Of a stretch of DNA of 64,000 nucleotides, positions 2,736 to 64,000 are shown in pieces; within the stretch, counting starts at the first letter, position 1; each line of letters opens with the position of its first letter. Under the pieces are notes generated by a model. That model did not search any database. It had not been told where the DNA came from and worked only from the letters and a program-made list of their open reading frames with translations. The position numbers were made by a program, and so were the translations under genes. The stretch lies in assembly GCF_054482595.1 (NCBI RefSeq), contig NZ_CM137008.1, one strand, 5' to 3'.

Positions 2736-4736
2736 TCATCCTTGTTGCTGAAGCATAGGGAATAATTGTTCGCACAGCAAAACACCGTTATTCATTGTTT
2801 CTACCCGTGCCTCGCTTTCTGTATTACGAAATTGTCCCAACACATGTGCCAGCCGATAAAAACCCACCGCGGTGAGGTCATTCGCCAGCAACTCTGCCTG
2901 ACCAATAGCACTCTGTTCCTGATAGCGCCAGCCGTTATGGAGCAGTTGAATAAGTAATGCCTGGCAGCGCATCAGCAACTGATGAGCAGTAGACGGCACA
3001 GGCAGAACGCTGGCAGAAGGTAGCGGTGCCACAGGCGCAGTTTCTGCGTCCAGCGCCCAGGCACGAGTCTTTGTCATCATTACCTGTGGTTCCAGTGTCA
3101 ATTGCCCATCAACAAAACTGACAAAGCCAGAAACCAGACACACGGGGTCGTCTGTTTGTTGCAAAAGCGCCGCCATGCGTTCAACGGCATAAGGCGCGCT
3201 GGCTGAGGCTGGCAGTGATAACGTCAGCTGATTATCTTCACCTTCGCCGCTGATTACCTGCGCATCCAGCGTTTGGCGGCTGCTATCCCAACCTAGTGAA
3301 ATACACTCAGCGACCGGCAGAATAAATAAGTTATCGACCTGATTAAGAGGCCGTATGCAGGCGGGGGGACGCTGGCGTAAATATTCCCGCAAAGCCACAA
3401 TGCCCGGCTGGCGCAACGGCGCGCTCAACATTTGCCAGGCATCTGGCGACAGTGGAACAACACTACTCAAGCGGTTACGGGTCGCGAACAGCAGTTCGCC
3501 TTCGGCACTGCGACGCGCTGCTTGTGAAACAATTTGCCCACCTGCCAGTGCGCCAGCCTGAAAACTAAACAGCCGACGTTTTGCCGCGGGAGCGTTTTCT
3601 TGTTCGCTTCTCGGCCAACTACGCGAAAGATGCAAAATACTGCCGGTGTCGGGATCGGTAAACCAGATGCGTAAACCATAATGCTCAATATCCTGCCAGC
3701 AACGCATACCTAAAGACACCAGCCGCAGATGATCAAGCTTTGCTTCTCCGGCAATGCCAGAGCCAACGACCGTGCGCCACGGCACAGGAGGAACTTCACC
3801 AACACTGTCGCGCCGGGCCATCTCTTGTGCGCAATTTAATCGACTGTTTAATGCCGCAAGCTGACGTAAGCATTCTCCGGCATGATAGTGGCTGGCGCGG
3901 GCGTGGAAGGCATCAACGCTGGCGCGCAGTTGCCGTAGCGATTCACTCACCCAGCGCCAGTTGCAGGCCTCTGCCGCCTGCAATGCGCGGTTGAAAGCGG
4001 CCTCGTAGTGAATAAGCGGCTGGCTGATGCCGCTCAGCCATAATGCCTGGCTTAGTTGTTGAACATATTGACGACACGTTTTGCCTTCTTCGCTGGCAAA
4101 CGGATCGTCAGATGATGTGACGTGTTCGCTGCGCATCTGCCAGATTAAATGAGTAAATTCCGCTTGCTGAGTTTTTGCCTGGACAAAGGCCTGTACTGCC
4201 AGTACGACATGTTCGCAAAGTGTGCCTTCAATACAATCACAACGGGCGAAACGAATGCTGCTACGGGAATAAAAACGCACATCGCTCATCGGTAAGCGGG
4301 CAGAGGGAATTTCGCCCGGCGTACAGAACAACTCAATGGTGATGCCTTTAGCGACCAGCGCCTGTGCGCGTTTGCGGGTGGTATCGGGCAGGGTAGCCAG
4401 TTCTTCCAGCCAGATTGCCGGATCCCACTCTTCTTCTTTTTCCGTGGGCTGGACGGTGGCACAAAGTCGTTGATAACTTAACACCAGCATCACGCGATGA
4501 CGGCACATGCCGCTGGCCCCGCAGCTGCACTGAGCCTCTTTCAGTGCCTGGCTGTTCGCCAGCTGGGTACGGACACCGTCACTGAAGGTGGCGATTAAAG
4601 CGCCGTTCTCATGGCTGATCTCCGGGACGTTGCCATTTTCCAGTTCCTTAAGACTGCGCTTAACAAAACCGGCATTGCTTAACGCTGTCAGGGCCTGCGG
4701 TGTCAGTTCTAATAATTCCGGACGTAGTGAATTCAT
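2736..4736 (-). CDS. yehQ: YehQ, SWIM zinc-finger protein (666 aa)
   Basis: Two CxC...CxH motifs (CSCGASGMCRHRVMLVL and CDCIEGTLCEHVVLAV); start ATG at 4734-4736 overlaps the yehP stop (ATGA). Confidence 0.8.
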   Translation of the reverse strand: MNSLRPELLELTPQALTALSNAGFVKRSLKELENGNVPEISHENGALIATFSDGVRTQLANSQALKEAQCSCGASGMCRHRVMLVLSYQRLCATVQPTEKEEEWDPAIWLEELATLPDTTRKRAQALVAKGITIELFCTPGEIPSARLPMSDVRFYSRSSIRFARCDCIEGTLCEHVVLAVQAFVQAKTQQAEFTHLIWQMRSEHVTSSDDPFASEEGKTCRQYVQQLSQALWLSGISQPLIHYEAAFNRALQAAEACNWRWVSESLRQLRASVDAFHARASHYHAGECLRQLAALNSRLNCAQEMARRDSVGEVPPVPWRTVVGSGIAGEAKLDHLRLVSLGMRCWQDIEHYGLRIWFTDPDTGSILHLSRSWPRSEQENAPAAKRRLFSFQAGALAGGQIVSQAARRSAEGELLFATRNRLSSVVPLSPDAWQMLSAPLRQPGIVALREYLRQRPPACIRPLNQVDNLFILPVAECISLGWDSSRQTLDAQVISGEGEDNQLTLSLPASASAPYAVERMAALLQQTDDPVCLVSGFVSFVDGQLTLEPQVMMTKTRAWALDAETAPVAPLPSASVLPVPSTAHQLLMRCQALLIQLLHNGWRYQEQSAIGQAELLANDLTAVGFYRLAHVLGQFRNTESEARVETMNNGVLLCEQLFPMLQQQG

Positions 4737-5869
4737 GACTGAAGATTCTCCGCAAGCCATGATGCCAGCTCGCCCGGTGTCATGGCGGCTATTTGTGCGC
4801 CGACATTTACCAGCACCTGGGCCGTATCGTGGTCATAGCAAGGTGTTGCGGTGCTATCGAGCGCCGCCAGTCCCAGCACTTTGATGCCGCTCTGGACACA
4901 CTTTTTCACCTGATGCGTCAGTAATGATGATGAACCCCCTTCGTAAAAATCGCTCACGAGGATAATGACGCTTTTCGCTGGTTGTTCAATAAGTTGCCGA
5001 CCATATTCCACGGCACTGGCGATATTGGTTCCGCCGCCTAATTGCACTTTCATTAATAACTCTACCGGATCGGCAACGTCTGCCGTGAGATCAACCACGC
5101 TGGTGTCAAACGCCACCAGATGGGTACGAATGCCGGGTAACTGCCATAAACAGGCCGCCATCACCGCAGAGTGGATCACCGAATCGACCATCGAGCCGCT
5201 TTGATCAACCAGTAAGACCAGTTGCCATTGTTCGCTTTGGCGTTTAATGCGGCTGTTAAAGCGGGGGGATTCGATATACAACTTGCCGTGTTGCGGGTGC
5301 CAGTGTTGCAGGTTGGCGCGCAGAGTACTTTTGAAATCAAAGTTTCGCGCCAGTGGAATAAATGAGCGGCGACGGCGATCGCGGACACCAGAAAAAGCCT
5401 GACGAACTTCCTTTGCCAGTCGAGCCATAATTTCTTCAACAACCTGGCGCACTATCCGGCGGGCGGCAGCCAGTACTTCGGGATTCATCAGATGTTTGGT
5501 GTGCAAAACGGCGCGTAGCAGGCTTTCAGAAGGCTGCATACGTTCCAGCACGTCGAGATTCGTCACCACATCTTCAATGCCATAGCGCAGTACGGCATCG
5601 CTTTCCAGCCGCTCAATCACCTGTTGCGGAAACAGCGTGTGAATACTGTTGATCCACTCAGGGGGGGTGAGATTTGAGCCACCTAATCCACCGGAGCGTT
5701 CACCACGCTGGAGCCGTTCAGGATCGCGCCCATACAGCCACTCCAGCGCGTGGTCTATCTGCCGGGCGTTGTCATCCAGCCCACAAAGCGTCGTTTCTGC
5801 CGCTTCGCCAAGAATTAATCGCCAGCGTTGTAGCTCACGGGTGGTCAGAAGATCGTTCAGTTCAGACAT
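4733..5869 (-). CDS. yehP: YehP, von Willebrand factor A (vWA) domain protein (378 aa)
   Basis: MIDAS-type motif LLVDQSGSM followed by ...GGGTNIASAV... and ...ILVSDFYEGG; start ATG 5867-5869 lies inside the yehM 3' end (8-nt overlap). Confidence 0.8.
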   Translation of the reverse strand: MSELNDLLTTRELQRWRLILGEAAETTLCGLDDNARQIDHALEWLYGRDPERLQRGERSGGLGGSNLTPPEWINSIHTLFPQQVIERLESDAVLRYGIEDVVTNLDVLERMQPSESLLRAVLHTKHLMNPEVLAAARRIVRQVVEEIMARLAKEVRQAFSGVRDRRRRSFIPLARNFDFKSTLRANLQHWHPQHGKLYIESPRFNSRIKRQSEQWQLVLLVDQSGSMVDSVIHSAVMAACLWQLPGIRTHLVAFDTSVVDLTADVADPVELLMKVQLGGGTNIASAVEYGRQLIEQPAKSVIILVSDFYEGGSSSLLTHQVKKCVQSGIKVLGLAALDSTATPCYDHDTAQVLVNVGAQIAAMTPGELASWLAENLQS

Positions 5870-8141
5870 GGAAAACTCCCCAGTTTTGCAGCGATGCCAG
5901 TGCCTGCTGTTCGAGTTGTTGATGATGTGCAATGGCTTGTGGTGGACAATGCAACGGCATTTGCAGCGCCGAAACGGGAAGTTGCGCCAGTTGATAATGC
6001 TCAAGCACCTGATGCGCCAGCGTCCCGCGTTCTCGTGGTGGTAGCCAGGCCATCGCCGCGCGTAAATCGGGCAGGGCATTGATAAAATTGGCATCACTCA
6101 GTTGATTTAAATGACTGCTGAAACCGGCGATAAATGCCGGCTGACAGGCCAGTTGATGACGGGCTAATGCCAGCAAACCGTGCAGCGCTTCGCCGGATTG
6201 TGCCGGGGATAACTGCGCCAGCATCGTCAGCGCCGCTTCGGCACTGGCGTTGGGATGTTCCAGACGCATCAGTGCGCCAAGAGCCGCGCCGCGATCCAGC
6301 GCCGGGGCATGGATTGCCTGACTGCGTCGCTCCAGTAAGGCTACCGCCGCAGAAAGAGAAATGCCGGGGAGCTGCACACCGCTATGCAGATCGCGCAGGA
6401 TATGACACAACGCTTGCCAGCTATGCAGGTGAGCGTGAAACTCCTTTTCATCCGGTCTGCCGTTGGATTCACACAGCCACAGCGTGCGATCGATAGCCGC
6501 GCATAACGTCGTTTGTAATATCTGCGCGCCTTGCATACCGCTAATTTCATCCAGCCGCCATAAGGCATATAGCACTTCCAGCGCCTGGCCCATTTCGGCA
6601 AATTGATTTTCCTGGGCTATTAATAATGTGAGTTGTTCCAGTAATTGTTGACTGAAGGACGCCAGACCCGCTAACGCTGCCTGGCTAAGACATGTGGTGA
6701 TACTGCCGATTCCACCCGCGTCCAGCATATCGGCTTCTAATTTATGGCGTGCGGCTTCCTGGAGTGTGGCACCAAAGCAGGCGGCCTCAATCAATGCCGC
6801 ATGCTGGCTAAGCGGGCGGGTTAATTTCCAGCGTTCTTCACCGTTGCCTGCAAGTGTCAGTGTGCTTCCCTGCTGGCGTACAATCCCTGGGATCTCCAGT
6901 ATTGCCAGCCGATGTAACACCTGACTTTGCGCTAGTCCATTGGGGTTAAAGCGATTTAAGGTAAGCTCCGCCGGAAGAGAGATTGCGGTACGTTCCAGTT
7001 CGCAGGTGACATCTTTTGGCAGAGGCGGTTGTGGCGTAGAAGGGGCAAGTTTACCGAATCCGTCACCCGCTAATGTGTCTATCAACGTTAGCAGAATCGG
7101 ATCGGTGTCGGGATGAATAACTCCGCGATAGCTCCACGGCAACGGCGCGTTCAGGGCTTCTTTAATCAGCGAGCCTGCTATGGCATCCAGCCAGTCAGTG
7201 CGTAACGGTAGTTTATGTCCGCGCAACTGTGCCAGCGCCATCGCATGCAGATGAGCGGCAGCCATATCCGCGGTCGAAGCAGGCAAGTGGTGTTGGCGCA
7301 AACGGGTAAGAACCGTTTTTAGCAGTTGTTCTCCCGCCTGCTGTAAGCCCCACTGCCAGCACCAGCTTTGCCAGACCGGGGCAGGCATTCCTGAAAGGTA
7401 TCCTGCCAGCACATCAAGGCGCTTTTCACTGTAGGGTGTGAGATAACAACCTGTAACGGCATCTGCCAGCGAGGGCAATTCTGGCTTGTTAATGTCCTGC
7501 GGGCATTCGCGCCACATTTTTGCCAGTGCCGGAGCGTGCCAGCCACCGCAGACGACTAACACGTCGCCATTATTTTGCTGCACCGCCCATGCAATCCAGC
7601 GAGCCATAAAGGCTTCGCGCTGACGATTGAGTGCATCGCCGGGGAAATCGCCCCGCAGTTGGGCAAAATAGTGCGCCAGTGCAGAGGGTAATGCAGTTTG
7701 CTGGCTTTCATCTTCGAACAAGTGATCCCACAGGGTATCGCTGTTATCCATGCGGGTGGCACGCAGCAGCAAGGTCTGGCTTTCCTCTTGCGTATCAGGC
7801 GAATCGTCCTCTTCTTCACTCTGTGCCCAGCAAGGCAAATCGATGAAGTAAGTTTGTGCCTGAATACGACGAGCGGCTTGTAGCGCCTGCCACTCCGGCG
7901 AAAATTCAGCAAATGGCGTCCAGGCACCACGCCCGGGGGCTGCACCGTCCTGATACTGGCAATAACTGTAAATAGCTACCGGAAGCTGGTGGGCTAAAAA
8001 CAGTTCGTCTACCCGGTCATTAAAATCAGCCGGGCCTTCAATCAACACGTATCGTGGCCGCTGGCTTTCGATTAACGATTTCACCAGCCGGGCGCAGGCC
8101 GGACTATGATGCCGGATGCCGACAATTAACGGCTCGCTCAT
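5862..8141 (-). CDS. yehM: YehM, large uncharacterized protein (759 aa)
   Basis: Long ORF trimmed to MSEPLIVGIRHH (ATG at 8139-8141), 10 nt downstream of the yehL stop; no motif I can assign with confidence. Confidence 0.75.
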   Translation of the reverse strand: MSEPLIVGIRHHSPACARLVKSLIESQRPRYVLIEGPADFNDRVDELFLAHQLPVAIYSYCQYQDGAAPGRGAWTPFAEFSPEWQALQAARRIQAQTYFIDLPCWAQSEEEDDSPDTQEESQTLLLRATRMDNSDTLWDHLFEDESQQTALPSALAHYFAQLRGDFPGDALNRQREAFMARWIAWAVQQNNGDVLVVCGGWHAPALAKMWRECPQDINKPELPSLADAVTGCYLTPYSEKRLDVLAGYLSGMPAPVWQSWCWQWGLQQAGEQLLKTVLTRLRQHHLPASTADMAAAHLHAMALAQLRGHKLPLRTDWLDAIAGSLIKEALNAPLPWSYRGVIHPDTDPILLTLIDTLAGDGFGKLAPSTPQPPLPKDVTCELERTAISLPAELTLNRFNPNGLAQSQVLHRLAILEIPGIVRQQGSTLTLAGNGEERWKLTRPLSQHAALIEAACFGATLQEAARHKLEADMLDAGGIGSITTCLSQAALAGLASFSQQLLEQLTLLIAQENQFAEMGQALEVLYALWRLDEISGMQGAQILQTTLCAAIDRTLWLCESNGRPDEKEFHAHLHSWQALCHILRDLHSGVQLPGISLSAAVALLERRSQAIHAPALDRGAALGALMRLEHPNASAEAALTMLAQLSPAQSGEALHGLLALARHQLACQPAFIAGFSSHLNQLSDANFINALPDLRAAMAWLPPRERGTLAHQVLEHYQLAQLPVSALQMPLHCPPQAIAHHQQLEQQALASLQNWGVFHV

Positions 8142-8151
8142 GCATCTTTCC

Positions 8152-9240
8152 TCACGGCAGGCGGTGGCGGGCTTGATAATAAGCCTGCCAGTGAGCTTCT
8201 TTATGTGTGGCGACACGCTGTTCGAAGTAACGGCGCAGACGAGCGCGATCTTCTTCGTTATCTTTGACGATGGTTCCGGCAATGCAGTCCACCAGATCGG
8301 CTGGCTCACCTGCGCGATTCGCTAAAAACCAGGCGCGGACGCCCACGGCGTGGGCCACGTTCACGGCTTCAGCGGTGGACATAATCGCTGTTAGTGTATC
8401 CATTGACGTTTTCTTTTCGCCGTTGGCACGCAGATCGCGGAAGGTGCGGACCAGTAACTCCAGTACCGCGTCAGGCACTTTATGCGGAATACCGCTATGG
8501 GCCAGCAAACGCGCCGAAGCACTGGCGACAAGCTCCAGCTCCTGGGCGAAATCCATAATCGGAAAGACAGTTTCAAAATCGAAGCGACGCTTTAGCGCAG
8601 CACTCATTTCATTGACGCCGCGATCGCGGGTATTGGCAGTGGCAATAATATTAAAGCCTTCTCGCGCATAGAGCTGACTGGCTTCACCAGTGAGTTCCGG
8701 CACCGTCATCACCCTGTCAGAAAGCATACCTAACAGACAGTCTTGCACTTCCAGCGGTGTACGCGTTATCTCTTCAAAACGGACGATTTTGCCGTCGCGC
8801 ATTCCCTGGTAAAGCGGGGCAGGGACCAGCGCTTCCGTTGATGGACCATGATTGATAAGCAGGGCGTAGTTCCAGCCGTACTTGATTTGATCTTCGGTAG
8901 TAGATGCGCCGCCCTGGATGGTTAACCCGGCATCGCCGCTAATAGCGGTTACCAGTAATTCAGACAGGAGAGATTTTGCGGTGCCAGGTTCCCCCACCAA
9001 CATCAAACCGCGTCCGGTGGCAAGAGTGACTAACATACGTTCGACAGCGGAGGGACTAATCACCACTTTACGGCTAATATTTTGCGCGCTATCGCCAAGG
9101 ATAAAAGCACGGGCCGCAGGCAAACTTAACTGCCAACCGGGCGGGCAAGGTGCGTTATCATTTTGTTTTAATTTTGCCAGTTCATCGGCGTATAACACAG
9201 CAGCAGGCGGACGCTGCAGATGATTATTCTGCGGTGACAT
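8152..9240 (-). CDS. yehL: YehL, MoxR-family AAA+ ATPase (362 aa)
   Basis: Walker A GEPGTAKS and AAA+ core; ORF trimmed to MSPQNNHLQRPPA (ATG at 9238-9240). Confidence 0.85.
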   Translation of the reverse strand: MSPQNNHLQRPPAAVLYADELAKLKQNDNAPCPPGWQLSLPAARAFILGDSAQNISRKVVISPSAVERMLVTLATGRGLMLVGEPGTAKSLLSELLVTAISGDAGLTIQGGASTTEDQIKYGWNYALLINHGPSTEALVPAPLYQGMRDGKIVRFEEITRTPLEVQDCLLGMLSDRVMTVPELTGEASQLYAREGFNIIATANTRDRGVNEMSAALKRRFDFETVFPIMDFAQELELVASASARLLAHSGIPHKVPDAVLELLVRTFRDLRANGEKKTSMDTLTAIMSTAEAVNVAHAVGVRAWFLANRAGEPADLVDCIAGTIVKDNEEDRARLRRYFEQRVATHKEAHWQAYYQARHRLP

Positions 9241-9349
9241 ATATTCATCCCTGAAATGTATTAATGAAATAAACGATATTTTACGCGCAATAAATGTTTG
9301 GCTCATTAGTTGTTTGAGCGAAAAATATCTGGAAAGCAGATCACAGTAA

Positions 9350-10858: not shown

Positions 10859-13800
10859 TTAATGGAAAATGACGTCAGGTGCGCTTAACGCCTCACTCAA
10901 ATTAAACACATCAAGTTCGGCAAAAGTGACGGATTTATTGTCACGGTACACTCGAAGAGAACGGAAGCTCATTAACGCTTTGCTATCAACATTGTAGTGG
11001 TTAAAACCGGGTGAAAACTTAAGGACCAGCCGGTACTCGCCCAGGTCATAGACAAATGCATCCTCATAGCCTGACTCCCAGCCTTTGTATCGCATTCCCA
11101 TAAGCTGCCCAACGGTAGCGGATTTACCTTCCCAGCGAGTCAGGCTGTTACTGGTTGACTCGTCAGGTGTGAGCAGCACCGTGCGCCGCGCCAACTGGCG
11201 AAAAGGCGGCATAATTTCGTAATCGGCAAAAAGCTGTGCAAATTCACTGCGCATTTCTACTGTCATTTCTAACGGGTGGGCAATGCCAATCAGAGCGTCC
11301 GCAGGCAGGTCAATTGGCTCATCTTGCGCATTGCAGAACTCCCCCTCTGCGGCCACACGAAAGGCGTTGAGTAAACAACGCGGTTCATTTGCCGGATAAG
11401 CCCCCCATATTAATCGCTGGGTAACCAGACGGGTAAAGGGATGATTAACAAACAGAGAATGAAAATCTGCCAGCGACCAGCGTCGGGTGGTACGTAGGGC
11501 CGTTTCAAGACGCGGGAGCAGGTTTTTGCTCACCTGAGTAGCATCTTTTTTTAGCCCTTTTAGTCGGGCCAGTGCCTCGGGCGCTTTCAGTTGATCGTCA
11601 TCGGCACGCAACCGGGGAACACTTTTCTGGCGAACGTTTTGTTGATCAAAGATAACCGGGTTGAGGTTTTCATCGAAGCGAACGGTAAACTGCCGGGGAC
11701 CAAAATCAAAAATCAACGCCTGCGGATCATCAAGACCTAGTGTTGGGACTAATCTGTCCGCTAACTCTTCCTGGCTTAGCCCGCGATTTTCTGCGACCAC
11801 CTGAAGAAATTCCGCTGCGTTTTCACGTAATGAAGAGGATTTCGCCCGTTGTGATACATGATGCAGCTGTATCAGCGCCATATCATTATTCATCAAGGTA
11901 AGTATATTCAGACCAATGACAGCACGGGCAGATTTGCCTTCTTGTGGCCAGGCGAGGATCTGTGTCGTCAGATCCCGAGCCGTGCTTTCGTCACCAAAGA
12001 GACTTAACGCCAGAAATGCCCAGTTGTCTTTTGCGGGGGCACCAGCTTGTTGCCACGCAGTGAAGAGATCCCAGGCAAAAGCGGCCAGCGTTTGTGGCTG
12101 GCAAAACGTTTTCAGTTGTTCCAGACCGCTATAAAAACGTCCGCCCTGGGTAAAGCGCAGCATTTCGCCGATAATTTCCAGAGCGTCATCGGTAACAGGC
12201 TGATTATTAGTGATAAGTCGCGGCCTGGACCACATTGCCGGATGCCAGAAATCAGGGGCTTTTGGAATGCGTGCCGGGTAAATGTCCATTGGACCCTGTT
12301 TCAGTAAATGCTCCAGGGCAGGCCATACATCTGTACGCTGCCAGCGGTTTGCCACGGTTTGCAGCAATTCACCATGTCCCTGTTCGTAAAGTAAACGCAG
12401 GGCAAGTAATGCAGCTTCGCTATTATCGCTGGATTTGGTGAAGACAAGAGGGATAAGTGCAGTAGCCGTATGTTCCGGCCAATGTAAAATCCACTGGCGA
12501 GCCAGATCACGCTGCACCGCGAAACGTCGCCAGACGCGGGCAACGGGCAGGGCCAGTTCTGTTGCGCCAAAATTTAAAATTAACGGAAATGTTTCTTTTG
12601 GACGATGTAAAAAAGCCAACATCAGACCTGGTAGCGCATCCAACCCGAGGATACTGAGAAAATAGTCCTCACCCGCGAACAGATGTTTTTTCTCATTGAT
12701 ACGCAGCCAGAAGGTCAAAGCCATCTCACGCGGCAACTGTGCCAATAAATACAGGTTCCAGACACTCTTTTCCGGACGATAACGTGAGTAGTTGTCATTT
12801 TCCCATATGTTAATTAACGCTTCTATGTGACCGCTGCGGAGCGCCTGTTCTGCTAATTGTGCTTCCGGGGAGTTCCAGCCATTCAGGATCTCTTCAACCC
12901 GCCCCTGGTAGTAATGCCACTGAACAATGAGTGAATTGCGTGCAGCATCCAGTTTTCCGGGGAGTATATAATTCAGAAACAGCCATACATCATCCCCAAA
13001 ACCCAGTTCCTGTAATACAACTCGCCCACTTTTTTGTTCCATGCGTTCCGCAAGAGATTCCGTGCTGAAATAACGGGCAGACTCAGTGGAGGCAAGCCAC
13101 TCTTGTTCGCCTGGTTGCCAGTAAACTTGCGGGGTTAATTCGAGCGGTGCCAAATCAAGACGTGGAGCTGTCATTTTTTTCTTACTACGCCACGGTGGTG
13201 AAACGAGGATTTCAGGCAGATTGCTGTTATCGGTGCCATCAATAACCGGTTTGGGCGGTGCCAATAAATAACTATTCAGTACTGCCCGGGCTTGAGTACT
13301 TAACCACTGCATCACCTCTTCTGCCAGTTGTGGCTGCGATGCCATCAGCGTTTGTAACAGCGTACGCCAGTATTCATCGCGTGCTTTTTGCTGGGCAGGC
13401 AGCTTTTTGTCTTCGATGATTGGATAACCAAGGCGGGCTGGTGGTTCTTTTAACGCCAGCAGTTCTGCCAGTGCCGCGAGCGTCGCGTGGGGGAAGTTTT
13501 TACTGTATTTAGCCACACGTTGCAGGCTGGGTTTGTTTTTATCAGCCACCAGTAGCAAGGTGTGGATGACCTGCGGATGGTTAATTTGTACCAACAGACT
13601 GCCGCAATCTTCTTTATGGGCATACATCGCGAGGCGCGGAATGGCTGCCAGTCCTTGTTCGCGCAAAAGGGCGGCGCAGGCCGCGTAGCCGAAGTGGTTT
13701 TTTTGTGACATGTAGCTGGCTTCGCGATCGCTAAATACGTCCAGGCCCCAGTATCGTTCGAGTTTTTTTACCGCCGTATTATCAGTAGCAACGACCTTTA

Positions 13801-61388: not shown

Positions 61389-62635
61389 CAGGAGCGTGCT
61401 CCTTTTTTCGCGTATTCGCGGCTGGTGGCTTTCTCTTCCGGAGTAGTGGCGCTCTGGGCTTCCACCACTTCCACTTTCGCCCCTTCGGTCAGGCGATCAA
61501 TGCCGTCTGTCACCACGCGATCGCCCGCAGAAATACCTGCACGGATCACCACTTTCTGACTGTCCTGAATGCCCGGCGTCACCAGATGTTTGCTGACCTT
61601 GTTTTCGCTATTCAGCACCCAGACAAAATGGCCTTCATTGCCCATTTGCAGGGCGGCTGTTGGGATCACTACGGCGTTTTGTTCGGTGTCGACTAACATG
61701 CGCGCGTTAACAAACTGATTGGGAAACAGCGCATCATCATGATTATTAAAGCGTGCTTTCACTTTAATCGTACCGGTAGTGGCATCGATTTGGTTATCTA
61801 GACTTAACAGCGTGCCTTCACTTAATTTCTTCGAGTTGGTGCGATCCCAGGCTTCTACCACCAGCGGTTTTCCGGCTTTCTGCGCCTGCACTACGGTAGC
61901 GATATCGCTTTCCGGCAGGGTAAAGACTAAATCGATAGGATGCGTCTGGGTGATCACCACGATCCCGGTGGTATCACCACTGGAGATTTGGTTACCAACA
62001 TCAACCTGCTTGAGACCAACGCGACCATCGACTGGTGCGGTAATCCGGCTCCAGTCGAGTTGCAGCTGCGCGCTGGCAACGCTTGCTTCATCAGCCTTAA
62101 TGGTGCCTTCGGTTTCACTGACCAGCGCCTGTTGGGCATCCAGCTCCTGGCGGGAAACGAGATTGGTTTTTGCCAGTTGTTGATAACGCGCCAGGTCACG
62201 GCGGGCGTTGGCAAGCGTGGCTTTATCTTTTGCCAGTTGGCCCTGGGCTTGTGCTAATGCAACTTTGAACTGGCTGGGGTCAATTTCTGCCAGTAAATCG
62301 CCTGCTTTGACCTGCTGGCCTTCCTGGAAATGTAACGCTATCAGTTGGCCGTCCACGCGGCTGCGCACCGTAACGGTATTAGCGGCGGTAATGGTGCCAA
62401 GCCCGGTGAGGTAACGCGGAACTGCCTGTTCTACGGCGGTCGCCGCCTGAACCGGGGCTAATGGGCCGGAACGCATACCACGTCGACCACCCGCTGGCGA
62501 TTGCTGCGCTTGTTTCGTCGCCCCTGGGGCTGCACTCCGGGAGTCATTGCGGCCTTGCCAGAACCAGAATGCGGCGATGGCGGCGATAACCACCACGATT
62601 ACGATTACCCAACGGGATTTATAACTACCTTTCAT
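61388..62635 (-). CDS. mdtA: RND membrane-fusion (periplasmic adaptor) protein MdtA (415 aa)
   Basis: ORF trimmed to [19 protein letters not shown] (ATG at 62633-62635); HlyD-like adaptor. Confidence 0.9.
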
Positions 62636-62683: not shown

Positions 62684-62714
62684 AGCCAGCCAATAAGGGA
62701 GAAAAATGGAGGAA
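62684..62714 (-). promoter_or_regulatory. Candidate BaeR box upstream of mdtA
   Basis: Minus strand reads ttcctccatttttctcccttattggctggc, close to the recalled BaeR consensus TTTTTCTCCATDATTGGC. Confidence 0.55.
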
Positions 62715-62854
62715 TTATGAAACACTGTCTGGAATCGTCTGAATGACGGGCACATTTGCGAGCACGCATCCAGTAATAACACATGAAACTATTTTATCTA
62801 CGCGTTAGCGATAGACTGCTTGCATGGCGAAAGGAGGTAAGCCGACGATTTCAG

Positions 62855-63000
62855 CGGGACGCTGAAACGGGAAAGCCCCTCCCGAGGAAGGGGCCATAAA
62901 TAAGGAAAGGGTCATGATGAAGTGGATCATCATCGTGGTGCTCTTAGTCATAAGCTTCCCGGCTTACTAAGACTACCAGGGCGGGGGAAACCCCGCTCTA
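62855..63000 (-). ncRNA. Candidate Sib antisense antitoxin sRNA, copy 1 (boundaries approximate)
   Basis: Inferred from the ibs/sib architecture, in which the antisense sRNA fully overlaps the ibs ORF; hairpin elements at both ends of the unit. Confidence 0.4.
62914..62970 (+). CDS. Ibs-family hydrophobic toxin peptide (18 aa, MMKWIIIVVLLVISFPAY)
   Basis: ATGATG start, wholly hydrophobic peptide ending in AY, RBS aggaaaggg; location between mdtA and yegL matches the recalled K-12 ibsA/ibsB-sibA/sibB locus. Confidence 0.65.
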   Translation: MMKWIIIVVLLVISFPAY

Positions 63001-63179
63001 CCCTCACTCCTGAAAGTATGCCTTCACGATAAGATTGTCAATCCGCAGGCTTTGCAGTCTGCGATCCTGCCAGCAAATATTCTTTGCGAGTCGTTACGCA
63101 ATAATCACAGAGGAAACTATTTTGTTCACGCGTTAGCGATAGACTGTATTCAGGGCGAAAGGAGGTAAGCCGACGATTT

Positions 63180-63330
63180 CAGCGGGATGCTGAAACGGGA
63201 AAGCCCCTCCCGGAGAAGAGGGCTTTTAATAAGGAAAGGGTTATGATGAAGCACGTCATCATACTGGTGATACTCTTAGTGATTAGCTTCCAGGCTTACT
63301 AAGAACACCAGGGGGAGGGGGAAACCTCTC
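63180..63330 (-). ncRNA. Candidate Sib antisense antitoxin sRNA, copy 2 (boundaries approximate)
   Basis: As copy 1; minus-strand hairpin gccctcttctccgggaggggc followed by a T-rich run just beyond the ibs start. Confidence 0.4.
63243..63302 (+). CDS. ibsA: Ibs-family hydrophobic toxin peptide (19 aa, MMKHVIILVILLVISFQAY)
   Basis: Near-identical to recalled IbsA (MMKHVIILVILLVISFPAY); A versus B assignment uncertain. Confidence 0.65.
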   Translation: MMKHVIILVILLVISFQAY

Positions 63331-63522
63331 CCTAACCCTCACTCCTGAAATTATGTCACTCCGCCCTTAGTGTCAATCGACGGCTCTCCGTTCTTGCGAG
63401 GCGAATAGCAAAATTTTCTGCGCCGCCGGGCCTAATTCTGAAAGTTTCTTCGTTTGCTCTTATTTCATTATTGCAGTCGGTATGATACCGGACCTCGATA
63501 ATTCTCTAAGAAAGGATTTCTT

Positions 63523-64000
63523 ATGAGCGAACAAATCACGTTTGCCACCAGCGATTTTGCCAGTAACCCGGAACCACGTTGCCCCTGCATTTTGCTGCTG
63601 GATGTTTCTGGTTCTATGAACGGTAGACCTATTAATGAACTTAACGCCGGATTGGTTACCTTTCGTGATGAACTGCTTGCTGATCCGCTGGCTTTAAAAA
63701 GAGTGGAACTCGGCATTGTGACGTTCGGCCCGGTGCATGTGGAACAACCCTTTACCAGCGCCGCTAATTTTTTTCCGCCCATCCTGTTTGCCCAGGGCGA
63801 TACACCAATGGGTGCGGCCATTACCAAAGCCCTGGATATGGTAGAGGAGCGGAAACGTGAGTATCGTGCAAATGGTATTTCGTATTATCGCCCGTGGATT
63901 TTCCTGATTACCGATGGTGCACCAACCGATGAGTGGCAGGCTGCAGCCAACAAAGTGTTTCGGGGGGAAGAAGATAAAAGGTTTGCTTTCTTTTCCATCG
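63523..64000 (+). CDS. yegL: vWA-domain protein YegL, N-terminal 159 codons; continues beyond the window
   Basis: Frame open from the ATG at 63523 to the window end; MIDAS-type motif LLLDVSGSM and ITDGAPTD; absent from the ORF track because no stop falls inside the window. Confidence 0.8.

Follow-up and report, generated by a model that had tools for sequence, protein, structure and literature searches.

We find that yegL, the gene that is cut by the end of the window (the whole 64,000-nucleotide stretch of DNA analysed here, from contig NZ_CM137008.1), heads a self-contained three-gene cassette, yegL-pphC-yegI, which encodes a vWA protein, a PP2C-type phosphatase, and a Ser/Thr protein kinase and belongs to the TerY-phosphorylation (TerY-P) triads; we put the probability that these gene identities and the triad membership are correct at roughly 0.9. 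Databases and the literature already contain the gene itself with its vWA annotation, the neighbouring kinase and phosphatase genes, and the TerY-P concept, and as it was stated in the initial annotation of this DNA the finding matters little, because it stays within existing knowledge. No published experiments on the function of YegL were found in the literature searched.

Results

The yegL reading frame and its upstream region

The yegL frame opens with an ATG at position 63523 and runs without a stop codon through the window end, which gives 159 codons. Positions 63523..64000 (+ strand) therefore hold the 5′ 478 nt of the coding sequence, codons 1-159 of 219, as assigned from the open frame, Pfam, and an AlphaFold2 (AF2) model searched with Foldseek; the remaining 182 nt lie past the edge. 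The frame is 100% identical to the annotated yegL of NZ_CP027140 and other genomes, and its 159 residues are identical to residues 1-159 of YegL (b2073) of K-12 strain MG1655. The last 4 kb of the window is 99.5% identical to MG1655, and therefore the DNA comes from a close relative of K-12 and not from K-12 itself. Using megablast, the interval 62700-64000 was matched in 5,419 of 5,426 complete E. coli genomes, many of them at 100% identity and carrying the annotation "yegL: vWA domain-containing protein".

Direct reading of the sequence showed a Shine-Dalgarno-like AAGGA (63512-63516, + strand) that lies 6 nt before the start codon of yegL. A scan of the + strand between 62600 and 63700 found no sigma-70 consensus promoter, and the total number of scan hits did not exceed that in shuffled sequences. 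The nearest flanking operon gene, mdtA, is divergently oriented (start codon at 62635, - strand), with the yegL start 888 bp away, and the gap between them holds two ibs/sib toxin-antitoxin loci, in which the ibsB and ibsA toxin open reading frames (ORFs) each face a Sib antitoxin RNA (Rfam SIB_RNA, 140 and 150 bits). The initial annotation had placed yegL 10 kb beyond the efflux operon, which is incorrect: the distance from mdtA is 0.9 kb, and it is the efflux operon itself that is about 11 kb long.

The vWA fold and MIDAS of YegL

The 159-residue fragment alone matched the Pfam families VWA_2 (1.4e-07, 32.5 bits against a cut-off of 27 bits) and VWA (1.5e-06), and the full 219-residue protein matched VWA at 7.2e-10. 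The motif LLLDVSGSM forms residues 24-32 (positions 63592-63618) and contains the first three MIDAS residues, D27-x-S29-x-S31, encoded by GAT GTT TCT GGT TCT at 63601..63615 (+ strand; D27 codon, 63601-63603). The MIDAS threonine, T94, was located from the sequence and the alignment in a G-D-T-P-M-G loop (63802..63804, + strand), and the last MIDAS residue, D131 (63913-63915), lies within T130-D131-G132 (63910..63918, + strand) at the end of strand beta4 (WIFLITDG). All five residues are therefore inside the window, an alignment of 53 family members shows each of them to be at least 90% conserved, and D27, S29, and S31 are invariant among the 12 closest homologues. The same level of conservation (at least 90% of the 53 sequences) was found for F189, W191, S193, and S195 of a Ser-rich C-terminal helix, F189-x-W191-L-S193-x-S195. 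Among 1.84 billion cluster representatives searched, 5,180 are related to YegL at E <= 0.001, and for 724 the match is at E <= 1e-30.

The AF2 model of YegL, built from the 53-sequence alignment, had a pLDDT of 95 and a pTM of 0.91 and consisted of alternating beta and alpha elements. A Foldseek comparison of this model with the PDB gave 209 matches at E <= 0.001, with E values down to 1.5e-08, and the top 50 were all vWA domains; the matches included ITIH4, von Willebrand A3, CMG2/ANTXR, collagen VI, integrin I-domains, ArnB (PDB 8s05_B, at rank 9), TFIIH p44, and Rea1-MIDAS. A sequence search of the PDB with YegL found ITIH4 at an E value of 0.13 only, and no close relative with a solved structure. 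The earlier reading of a vWA protein with a DxSxS motif at the window edge is thus borne out by the open frame, the Pfam match, and the conserved MIDAS, and the vWA fold is borne out by the model. YegL is a TerY-family protein of the cytoplasm that consists of a single vWA domain; its MIDAS is complete, and it is predicted to bind metal.

The genes downstream of yegL

The genes past the window end were read from genomes that are 100% identical to the window over 62700-64000 (NZ_CP027140, our locus L001). The order after yegL was found to be pphC (yegK), yegJ on the opposite strand, yegI, yegD, and alkA, which is the same as in K-12. The yegL and pphC genes overlap by 4 nt and are translationally coupled. 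PphC matched Pfam PP2C_2 at 5.7e-52, YegJ is a DUF2314 protein encoded by a gene with a GC content of about 36%, and yegI is annotated as a protein kinase. The initial annotation had named a PP2C-type phosphatase and a protein-kinase-like gene as neighbours outside the window, and pphC and yegI are indeed there, so the downstream genes are not unrelated to kinase/phosphatase signalling.

With Pfam Pkinase, YegI did not reach an E value of 0.01, and weak matches to kinase models were obtained in PADLOC and NCBIfam. It was found that 47 YegI orthologues keep the GxGGEG loop, K41, D143, D161-x-D163, and TPPE, and that C309, H315, C324, and C327, which form a zinc-ribbon-like signature, are invariant among them. 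Rajagopalan and Dworkin reported that YegK/PphC is an active PP2C-like phosphatase that dephosphorylates YegI, and YegI has been described as an autophosphorylating Ser/Thr kinase that crosses the inner membrane twice as a hairpin, with both termini in the cytoplasm (10.1101/303594, 10.1101/819920).

The model of YegI residues 440-648 (pLDDT 93) showed a long coiled-coil hairpin with a small helical insert. Conserved within the insert are two G-I/F-G hairpins (IPGVGpaRK...GIETAADV...VkGFG), which look like HhH DNA-binding motifs, and Pfam HHH_5 matched them below threshold in 14 of the 47 orthologues. A Foldseek search with the C-terminal model returned coiled-coil noise only (E > 0.09). Because the fold search gave only noise, the HhH reading is drawn from the motifs and the sub-threshold Pfam hits, and possible DNA binding by the YegI C terminus is a lead, not a result.

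Distribution and conservation of the cassette

A degenerate-peptide scan based on the conserved stretch around WIFLITDG in the 12 closest sequences was run on one genome per species for 100,044 species, and it gave 598 confirmed YegL-related loci. In the best 80 of these 598, in which the YegL homologue is 59-96% identical to YegL (59-79% outside E. coli), ORFs were called and searched with PphC and YegI. In 71 of the 80 loci the YegL homologue is directly followed, in the same orientation, by homologues of PphC and full-length YegI, and most of the YegI homologues in these 71 include the C-terminal domain. In five loci the contig ends inside the kinase gene, and in the other four the contig is cut directly after the vWA gene or the kinase is absent (in locus L029 an unrelated ORF follows PphC); a PP2C gene lies downstream in 76 of the 80. 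The triad hosts are Beta-, Gamma-, and Alphaproteobacteria, Planctomycetes, Chloroflexi, Cyanobacteria, Acidobacteria, Firmicutes, and Methanoregula archaea, and they include Burkholderiales, Herbaspirillum, Xanthomonas, Competibacteraceae, Methylocystis, and Saccharibacillus/Bacillus.

The flanking genes at the 80 loci differ between lineages, and no conserved flanking partner gene was found. The sole neighbour that recurs, accounting for 12 of the 118 flanking proteins, is a TetR regulator, and it does so in Competibacteraceae. Most genes next to the triads are ordinary; a handful of flanks match defence models (RT-Toprim, TIR, mad, LmuB), which is a raw tally for which we claim no enrichment.

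Within E. coli, yegL-pphC is present as a single copy in 5407 of 5426 complete genomes, and the GC content of the cassette is near the genome average. The yegJ gene lies between pphC and yegI in 1,901 of 5,426 genomes (about 35%), including the closest relatives of the window, and is absent from all of the non-E. coli triad loci among the 80. An uninterrupted cassette was seen in 71 of the 80 related loci and about 65% of E. coli genomes; pphC and yegI are split by yegJ in the lineage of the window. Between two divergent E. coli lineages the dN/dS values were 0.05 for yegL, 0.14 for pphC, and 0.11 for yegI (mdtA, 0.04), and therefore the three genes are maintained by purifying selection.

Comparison with the ter locus

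The TerY-phosphorylation triad was defined by Anantharaman, Iyer, and Aravind in 2012, as cited in PMC11090510, and the passages on it in PMC11090510 and PMC4978471 describe a TerY-like vWA protein, a PP2C phosphatase, and a Ser/Thr kinase with a C-terminal zinc ribbon, hypothesised to form a metal-sensing, phosphorylation-dependent switch tied to DNA-processing and restriction systems. In a BLASTP comparison, YegL was 32% identical to TerY1 of the IncHI2 ter locus over 181 aa (E 1e-27), in an alignment that reaches through the F-x-W-x-S-x-S helix at the C terminus, and in a tblastn search with YegL 2,331 plasmids gave matches to the TerY genes of their ter loci. The ter locus of the IncHI2 plasmid NZ_CP117034 encodes TerW, TerY1, TerX (TerD family), TerY2, TerY3 (VWA + TerY_C), a PP2C_2 protein, and a kinase, and thus shares with the yegL cassette a MIDAS vWA protein, a PP2C_2 phosphatase, and a Ser/Thr kinase in the same order. 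Both kinases are followed by a Cys/His zinc-ribbon-like segment, and the ter-locus kinase aligns with YegI over this segment (CPWC/CPYC). The TerY similarity, together with the same vWA, PP2C, kinase order, therefore indicates that the yegL cassette is of the TerY-P triad kind.

The two differ in several respects. The ter locus has three vWA genes (TerY1, Y2, and Y3), whereas the yegL cassette has one, which is without a TerY_C domain; the ter PP2C has a 280-aa N-terminal extension that PphC lacks; and YegI adds a transmembrane hairpin and a coiled-coil/HhH-like C terminus. Unlike the ter locus, the surroundings of yegL contain no biosynthetic genes and no genes for TerD/TerZ/TerA-F, TerW, or TerC, either in the window or in L001, and none of these ter genes recurs among the 118 flanking proteins of the related loci.

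Comparison with validated TerY-P defence systems and other vWA modules

E. coli carrying TerY-P triads is resistant to T7-like phages (Gao et al. 2020, in the passages of PMC11090510 and PMC7699616 that cite it), and a P. aeruginosa variant gives resistance to Autographiviridae (Costa et al., 10.1101/2022.08.12.503731). Like the yegL cassette, these are stand-alone three-gene systems of a vWA protein, a PP2C phosphatase, and a Ser/Thr kinase. However, the PADLOC TerY HMM gave an E value of 0.032 and 11.7 bits for YegL, which is not a significant match, both at default settings and with E <= 10; PphC had no match, and YegI matched only generic kinase models (PD-T4-6/MkoA, 1e-4). The canonical plasmid TerY1 is likewise unmatched, and therefore the PADLOC TerY models are narrow. 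The kinase of the validated systems also has a C-terminal OB fold (PMC11090510), whereas YegI has a transmembrane hairpin and a coiled-coil hairpin with the HhH-like insert, and Pfam searches detected no OB-fold family in YegI. We therefore rejected assignment of the yegL cassette to the validated defence subfamily, given the lack of a significant PADLOC match and of an OB fold: it has the TerY-P triad architecture and lies outside that subfamily. The TerY-P modules of type II/III-A CoCoNuT (McrBC-like) systems resemble it in having a TerY-like vWA protein, a PP2C phosphatase, and a kinase with a C-terminal zinc ribbon (PMC11090510), but no McrB/McrC, HEPN, or helicase genes adjoin yegLKI in E. 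coli or the 80 related loci.

Some vWA proteins work with Hanks-type kinases and Ser/Thr phosphatases, as in ArnA/ArnB, the archaellum regulators of Sulfolobus, where ArnB is a vWA protein regulated by Ser/Thr kinases, and in PpkA/PppA, which form the threonine-phosphorylation pathway of the P. aeruginosa H1-T6SS. These differ from YegL in that no FHA partner, T6SS, or archaellum genes are found near yegL, and the sequence identity is about 17%. Furthermore, the vWA domain of PpkA is fused to the kinase and is periplasmic, whereas YegL is a separate cytoplasmic protein.

The window encodes a further vWA protein with a DxSxS motif, YehP (4733-5869, - strand), which belongs to the yehLMPQ cluster and the VWA_CoxE subfamily (1e-71). 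YehP is paired with a MoxR-type AAA+ ATPase (YehL), whereas YegL is paired with a kinase and a phosphatase, and a BLASTP comparison of YegL with YehP gave no significant pairwise similarity (E = 0.035). The initial annotation had called the two proteins unrelated and had grouped them as two vWA-based modules of one region. The first statement holds at the subfamily level (VWA_CoxE as opposed to the TerY type) but not for the fold, which is the same. As to the second, both vWA proteins are in the window, but they are about 58 kb apart and there is no evidence of a link; with different subfamilies and different partners as well, we rejected a YegL-YehP connection.

Domain fusions of YegL-like vWA proteins

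The 150 best representative relatives were surveyed for fusions. Among them, vWA domains 45-56% identical to YegL were found fused to TIR (four proteins), to caspase or CHAT (three proteins, once with a TRADD-like N domain), and to a protein kinase (two proteins), and further fusions were found with AAA+ ATPases, a double GTPase, DUF4236 (which also occurs in the ter locus), TerY_C, and zinc ribbons. The gene for one caspase-vWA fusion overlaps by 4 nt with the PP2C_2 gene that comes after it, and the CHAT-TRADD_N-vWA gene stands alone beside a transposase and a VapC toxin. Signalling and effector domains like these fusion partners are typical of prokaryotic conflict systems, and the kinase-vWA fusions argue for direct cooperation between the vWA protein and the kinase.

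A scan of viral contigs found no YegL relatives, and a tblastn search of GenBank phages gave three hits, all to unannotated metagenomic "Bacteriophage sp." records at 39-44% identity. We find no evidence in these searches for a phage origin of yegL.

Discussion

The MIDAS cation of vWA domains normally serves protein-ligand binding and not metal detoxification, and in integrin I-domains the C-terminal helix is allosterically coupled to the MIDAS. With this background, a model can be proposed in which YegI would autophosphorylate at the inner membrane and PphC would reverse this phosphorylation, both activities being taken from the literature, and YegL would be the third partner of the switch, binding an acidic or phosphorylated residue of a partner through the MIDAS divalent cation. 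Candidate partners would be YegI, PphC, or a target protein. YegL might, in addition, be a phosphorylation target, with the conserved Ser-rich helix at its C terminus as one candidate site; by analogy with integrin I-domains, this helix would be a plausible control point. The kinase and phosphatase activities would then set whether YegL is engaged and so gate a YegL-dependent output. We regard the chances that YegL is an adaptor or substrate of a kinase/phosphatase switch as about even; it may be a substrate, a regulator, or an effector.

The favoured reading of the output is a stress or biological-conflict response that touches DNA, such as anti-phage defence or a response to DNA damage, instead of housekeeping signalling. 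Indirect support for it comes from the effector-domain fusions, from the phage resistance given by other TerY-P triads, and from the HhH-like hairpins of YegI. In addition, YegL and YegI were both classed as strong "DNA-damage-up" proteins on overproduction in the study of Xia et al. (10.1101/354589), a phenotype that may be non-specific, since it comes from overproduction, and the yegL-pphC-yegI genes are barely expressed under laboratory conditions (10.1101/303594, 10.1101/819920). An anti-phage or DNA-conflict role of the cassette is possible, and we hold it only tentatively. In its full form, which we put forward as a speculation of similarly low probability, yegL-pphC-yegI would be a distinct, horizontally mobile TerY-P conflict subfamily missed by defence HMMs, in which the zinc ribbon and coiled-coil/HhH-like tip of the membrane-anchored kinase might let it sense a phage protein or DNA that is foreign or damaged, PphC would reset the system, and YegL would be the MIDAS-dependent adaptor to a DNA-perturbing or growth-arresting response.

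The cassette might instead carry out housekeeping or stress-physiology signalling, with YegI and PphC regulating ordinary E. coli proteins (in stationary phase or envelope stress, for example) and YegL acting as a metal-dependent scaffold. This agrees with the near-core, single-copy, fixed position of the cassette in E. coli and its near-average GC content, with the lack of a recognisable defence island at most of the 80 loci, and with the authors of the YegI/PphC work, who framed their results as general Ser/Thr signalling and found weak stationary-phase expression (10.1101/819920). However, the phyletic pattern is that of a mobile cassette, in which YegL stays 59-79% identical across phyla and archaea amid unrelated flanks, and such a pattern is atypical for housekeeping regulators; close vWA relatives are, moreover, fused to death-type effectors (TIR, caspase, CHAT). 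We consider housekeeping signalling a possible but doubtful explanation.

A role in metal or tellurite resistance, with YegL sensing or sequestering metal ions as has been thought of for TerY in the ter operon, would follow from the clear homology of YegL to TerY and from the MIDAS being a metal site. The 2012 proposal of TerY-P as a metal-sensing switch (Anantharaman et al., as cited in a passage of PMC11090510) points the same way. Against this, the ter genes that were looked for neither occur near yegL nor recur beside the 80 triads, and the normal use of a MIDAS cation in vWA proteins is, as noted above, the binding of protein ligands, so we regard this role as very unlikely.

The least likely of the readings considered is that the cassette is a cryptic or decaying remnant without current function in the lineage of the window: no condition with robust expression has been reported (10.1101/303594, 10.1101/819920), yegJ interrupts pphC-yegI in the window's close relatives among others, IS1 or IS5 insertions occur in some E. 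coli records, PphC activity differs between K-12 and B strains (10.1101/303594), and yegL was deleted harmlessly in the genome-reduced strain DGF-298 (according to a passage of PMC10652928), but almost all E. coli genomes have the three ORFs intact, the dN/dS values of these genes are comparable to that of mdtA, and the MIDAS and the kinase catalytic residues are conserved.

Taken together, these results place YegL among the few conserved K-12 proteins that have a clear fold and obvious partners and are yet unstudied, and the role of the vWA partner would explain a widespread three-component Ser/Thr switch. If the tentative reading of yegL-pphC-yegI as a distinct TerY-P conflict subfamily is true, such a subfamily sits in nearly every E. 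coli, including K-12, and has relatives in which TIR, caspase, or CHAT effectors are built into one protein with this vWA module. Knowledge of what YegL does could also extend the K-12 inventory by a cryptic module for immunity or stress.

Allelic divergence of pphC and insertions between pphC and yegI in E. coli

The window ends inside yegL, and the genes beyond it were read from locus L001 (NZ_CP027140), which is 100% identical to it over positions 62700-64000. The nucleotide identity of pphC, the PP2C phosphatase gene, was found to be only 80% between two E. coli lineages (L001 10480-11241 vs. L004 2980-3732), with a dS of 0.82 and a dN of 0.115; the surrounding genes yegL, yegI, and mdtA were 92-94% identical between the same two lineages. 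pphC is a localized hot spot at which alleles have diverged, in keeping with the report that PphC activity is not the same in K-12 as in B strains.

In L001, pphC and yegI are separated by yegJ (DUF2314; 11306-11767, minus strand), which lies just past the window end and has a GC content of about 36%. Of 5,426 complete E. coli genomes, 1,901 carry this gene; it was absent from all 79 non-E. coli triad loci among the best 80 of 598 confirmed relatives (one genome per species). It has the look of an insertion specific to one lineage, interrupting an ancestral overlap of pphC and yegI. A 2026 paper (PMC13232886) reports that YegJ binds RNase E. Insertion sequences were also seen between pphC and yegI, namely, IS1A in L003 (CP137936.1) and IS5 in H46 (NZ_CM184348.1). 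The CP137936.1 record, 365 kb in length, is labelled a plasmid but carries the chromosomal mdtABC-yegL-yegD-alkA segment, which points to either a wrongly assigned replicon or the capture of a large piece of chromosome.

Other features of the window

The mdtA-yegL intergenic region is taken up by two tandem type I toxin-antitoxin loci, sibB/ibsB and sibA/ibsA, already known features of K-12. The Sib antisense RNAs (Rfam RF00113, minus strand) are at 62899-63041 (140 bits) and 63228-63376 (150 bits), opposite the plus-strand toxin ORFs ibsB (62914-62970) and ibsA (63243-63302), which are 18-19 codons long.

The yehLMPQ cluster (2736-9306, minus strand) encodes the other vWA protein, YehP (4733-5869, minus strand), which matches VWA_CoxE (1e-71) and the gene of which adjoins that of the MoxR-like ATPase YehL. 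YehP is a vWA module of a different kind than YegL.

Domain features of YegI and YegL-type proteins

The residues C309, H315, C324, and C327 are invariant in orthologues of the kinase YegI (L001 11967-13913), forming a zinc-ribbon-like motif after the kinase domain (residues 300-340). The C-terminal part (residues 440-648) was confidently predicted to be a coiled-coil hairpin with two HhH-like G-I/F-G hairpins, and a fold search of the model gave no confirmation of HhH. Neither feature is treated in the available text of the two YegI/PphC papers (10.1101/303594 and 10.1101/819920).

YegL-type vWA domains (45-56% identity) were found joined to TIR, caspase, CHAT plus TRADD-N, protein kinase, AAA+, and GTPase domains (proteins P0129, P0198, P0137, P0152, P0161, P0164, P0134, and P0195, among the 150 best cluster representatives; loci L085 and L086). 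The caspase-vWA gene is followed directly by a PP2C_2 gene, with an overlap of 4 nt.

Distribution of the cassette

In Competibacteraceae and relatives, the kinase gene is directly followed by a co-oriented TetR-family regulator gene of roughly 200 aa (L031, L041, L047, L052, L053, L059, L060, L063, L066, L068, L082, and L083), and this regulator gene may be a lineage-specific fourth cassette gene. Complete yegL-pphC-yegI cassettes are present in Methanoregula and other Methanomicrobiales (L046, L048, L051, L056, L062, L067, L070, L072, L078, and L080), methanogenic archaea in which YegL is about 60% identical to E. coli YegL. Among bacteria, they occur in eight phyla or more. This distribution indicates that the intact cassette has moved between domains by horizontal transfer.
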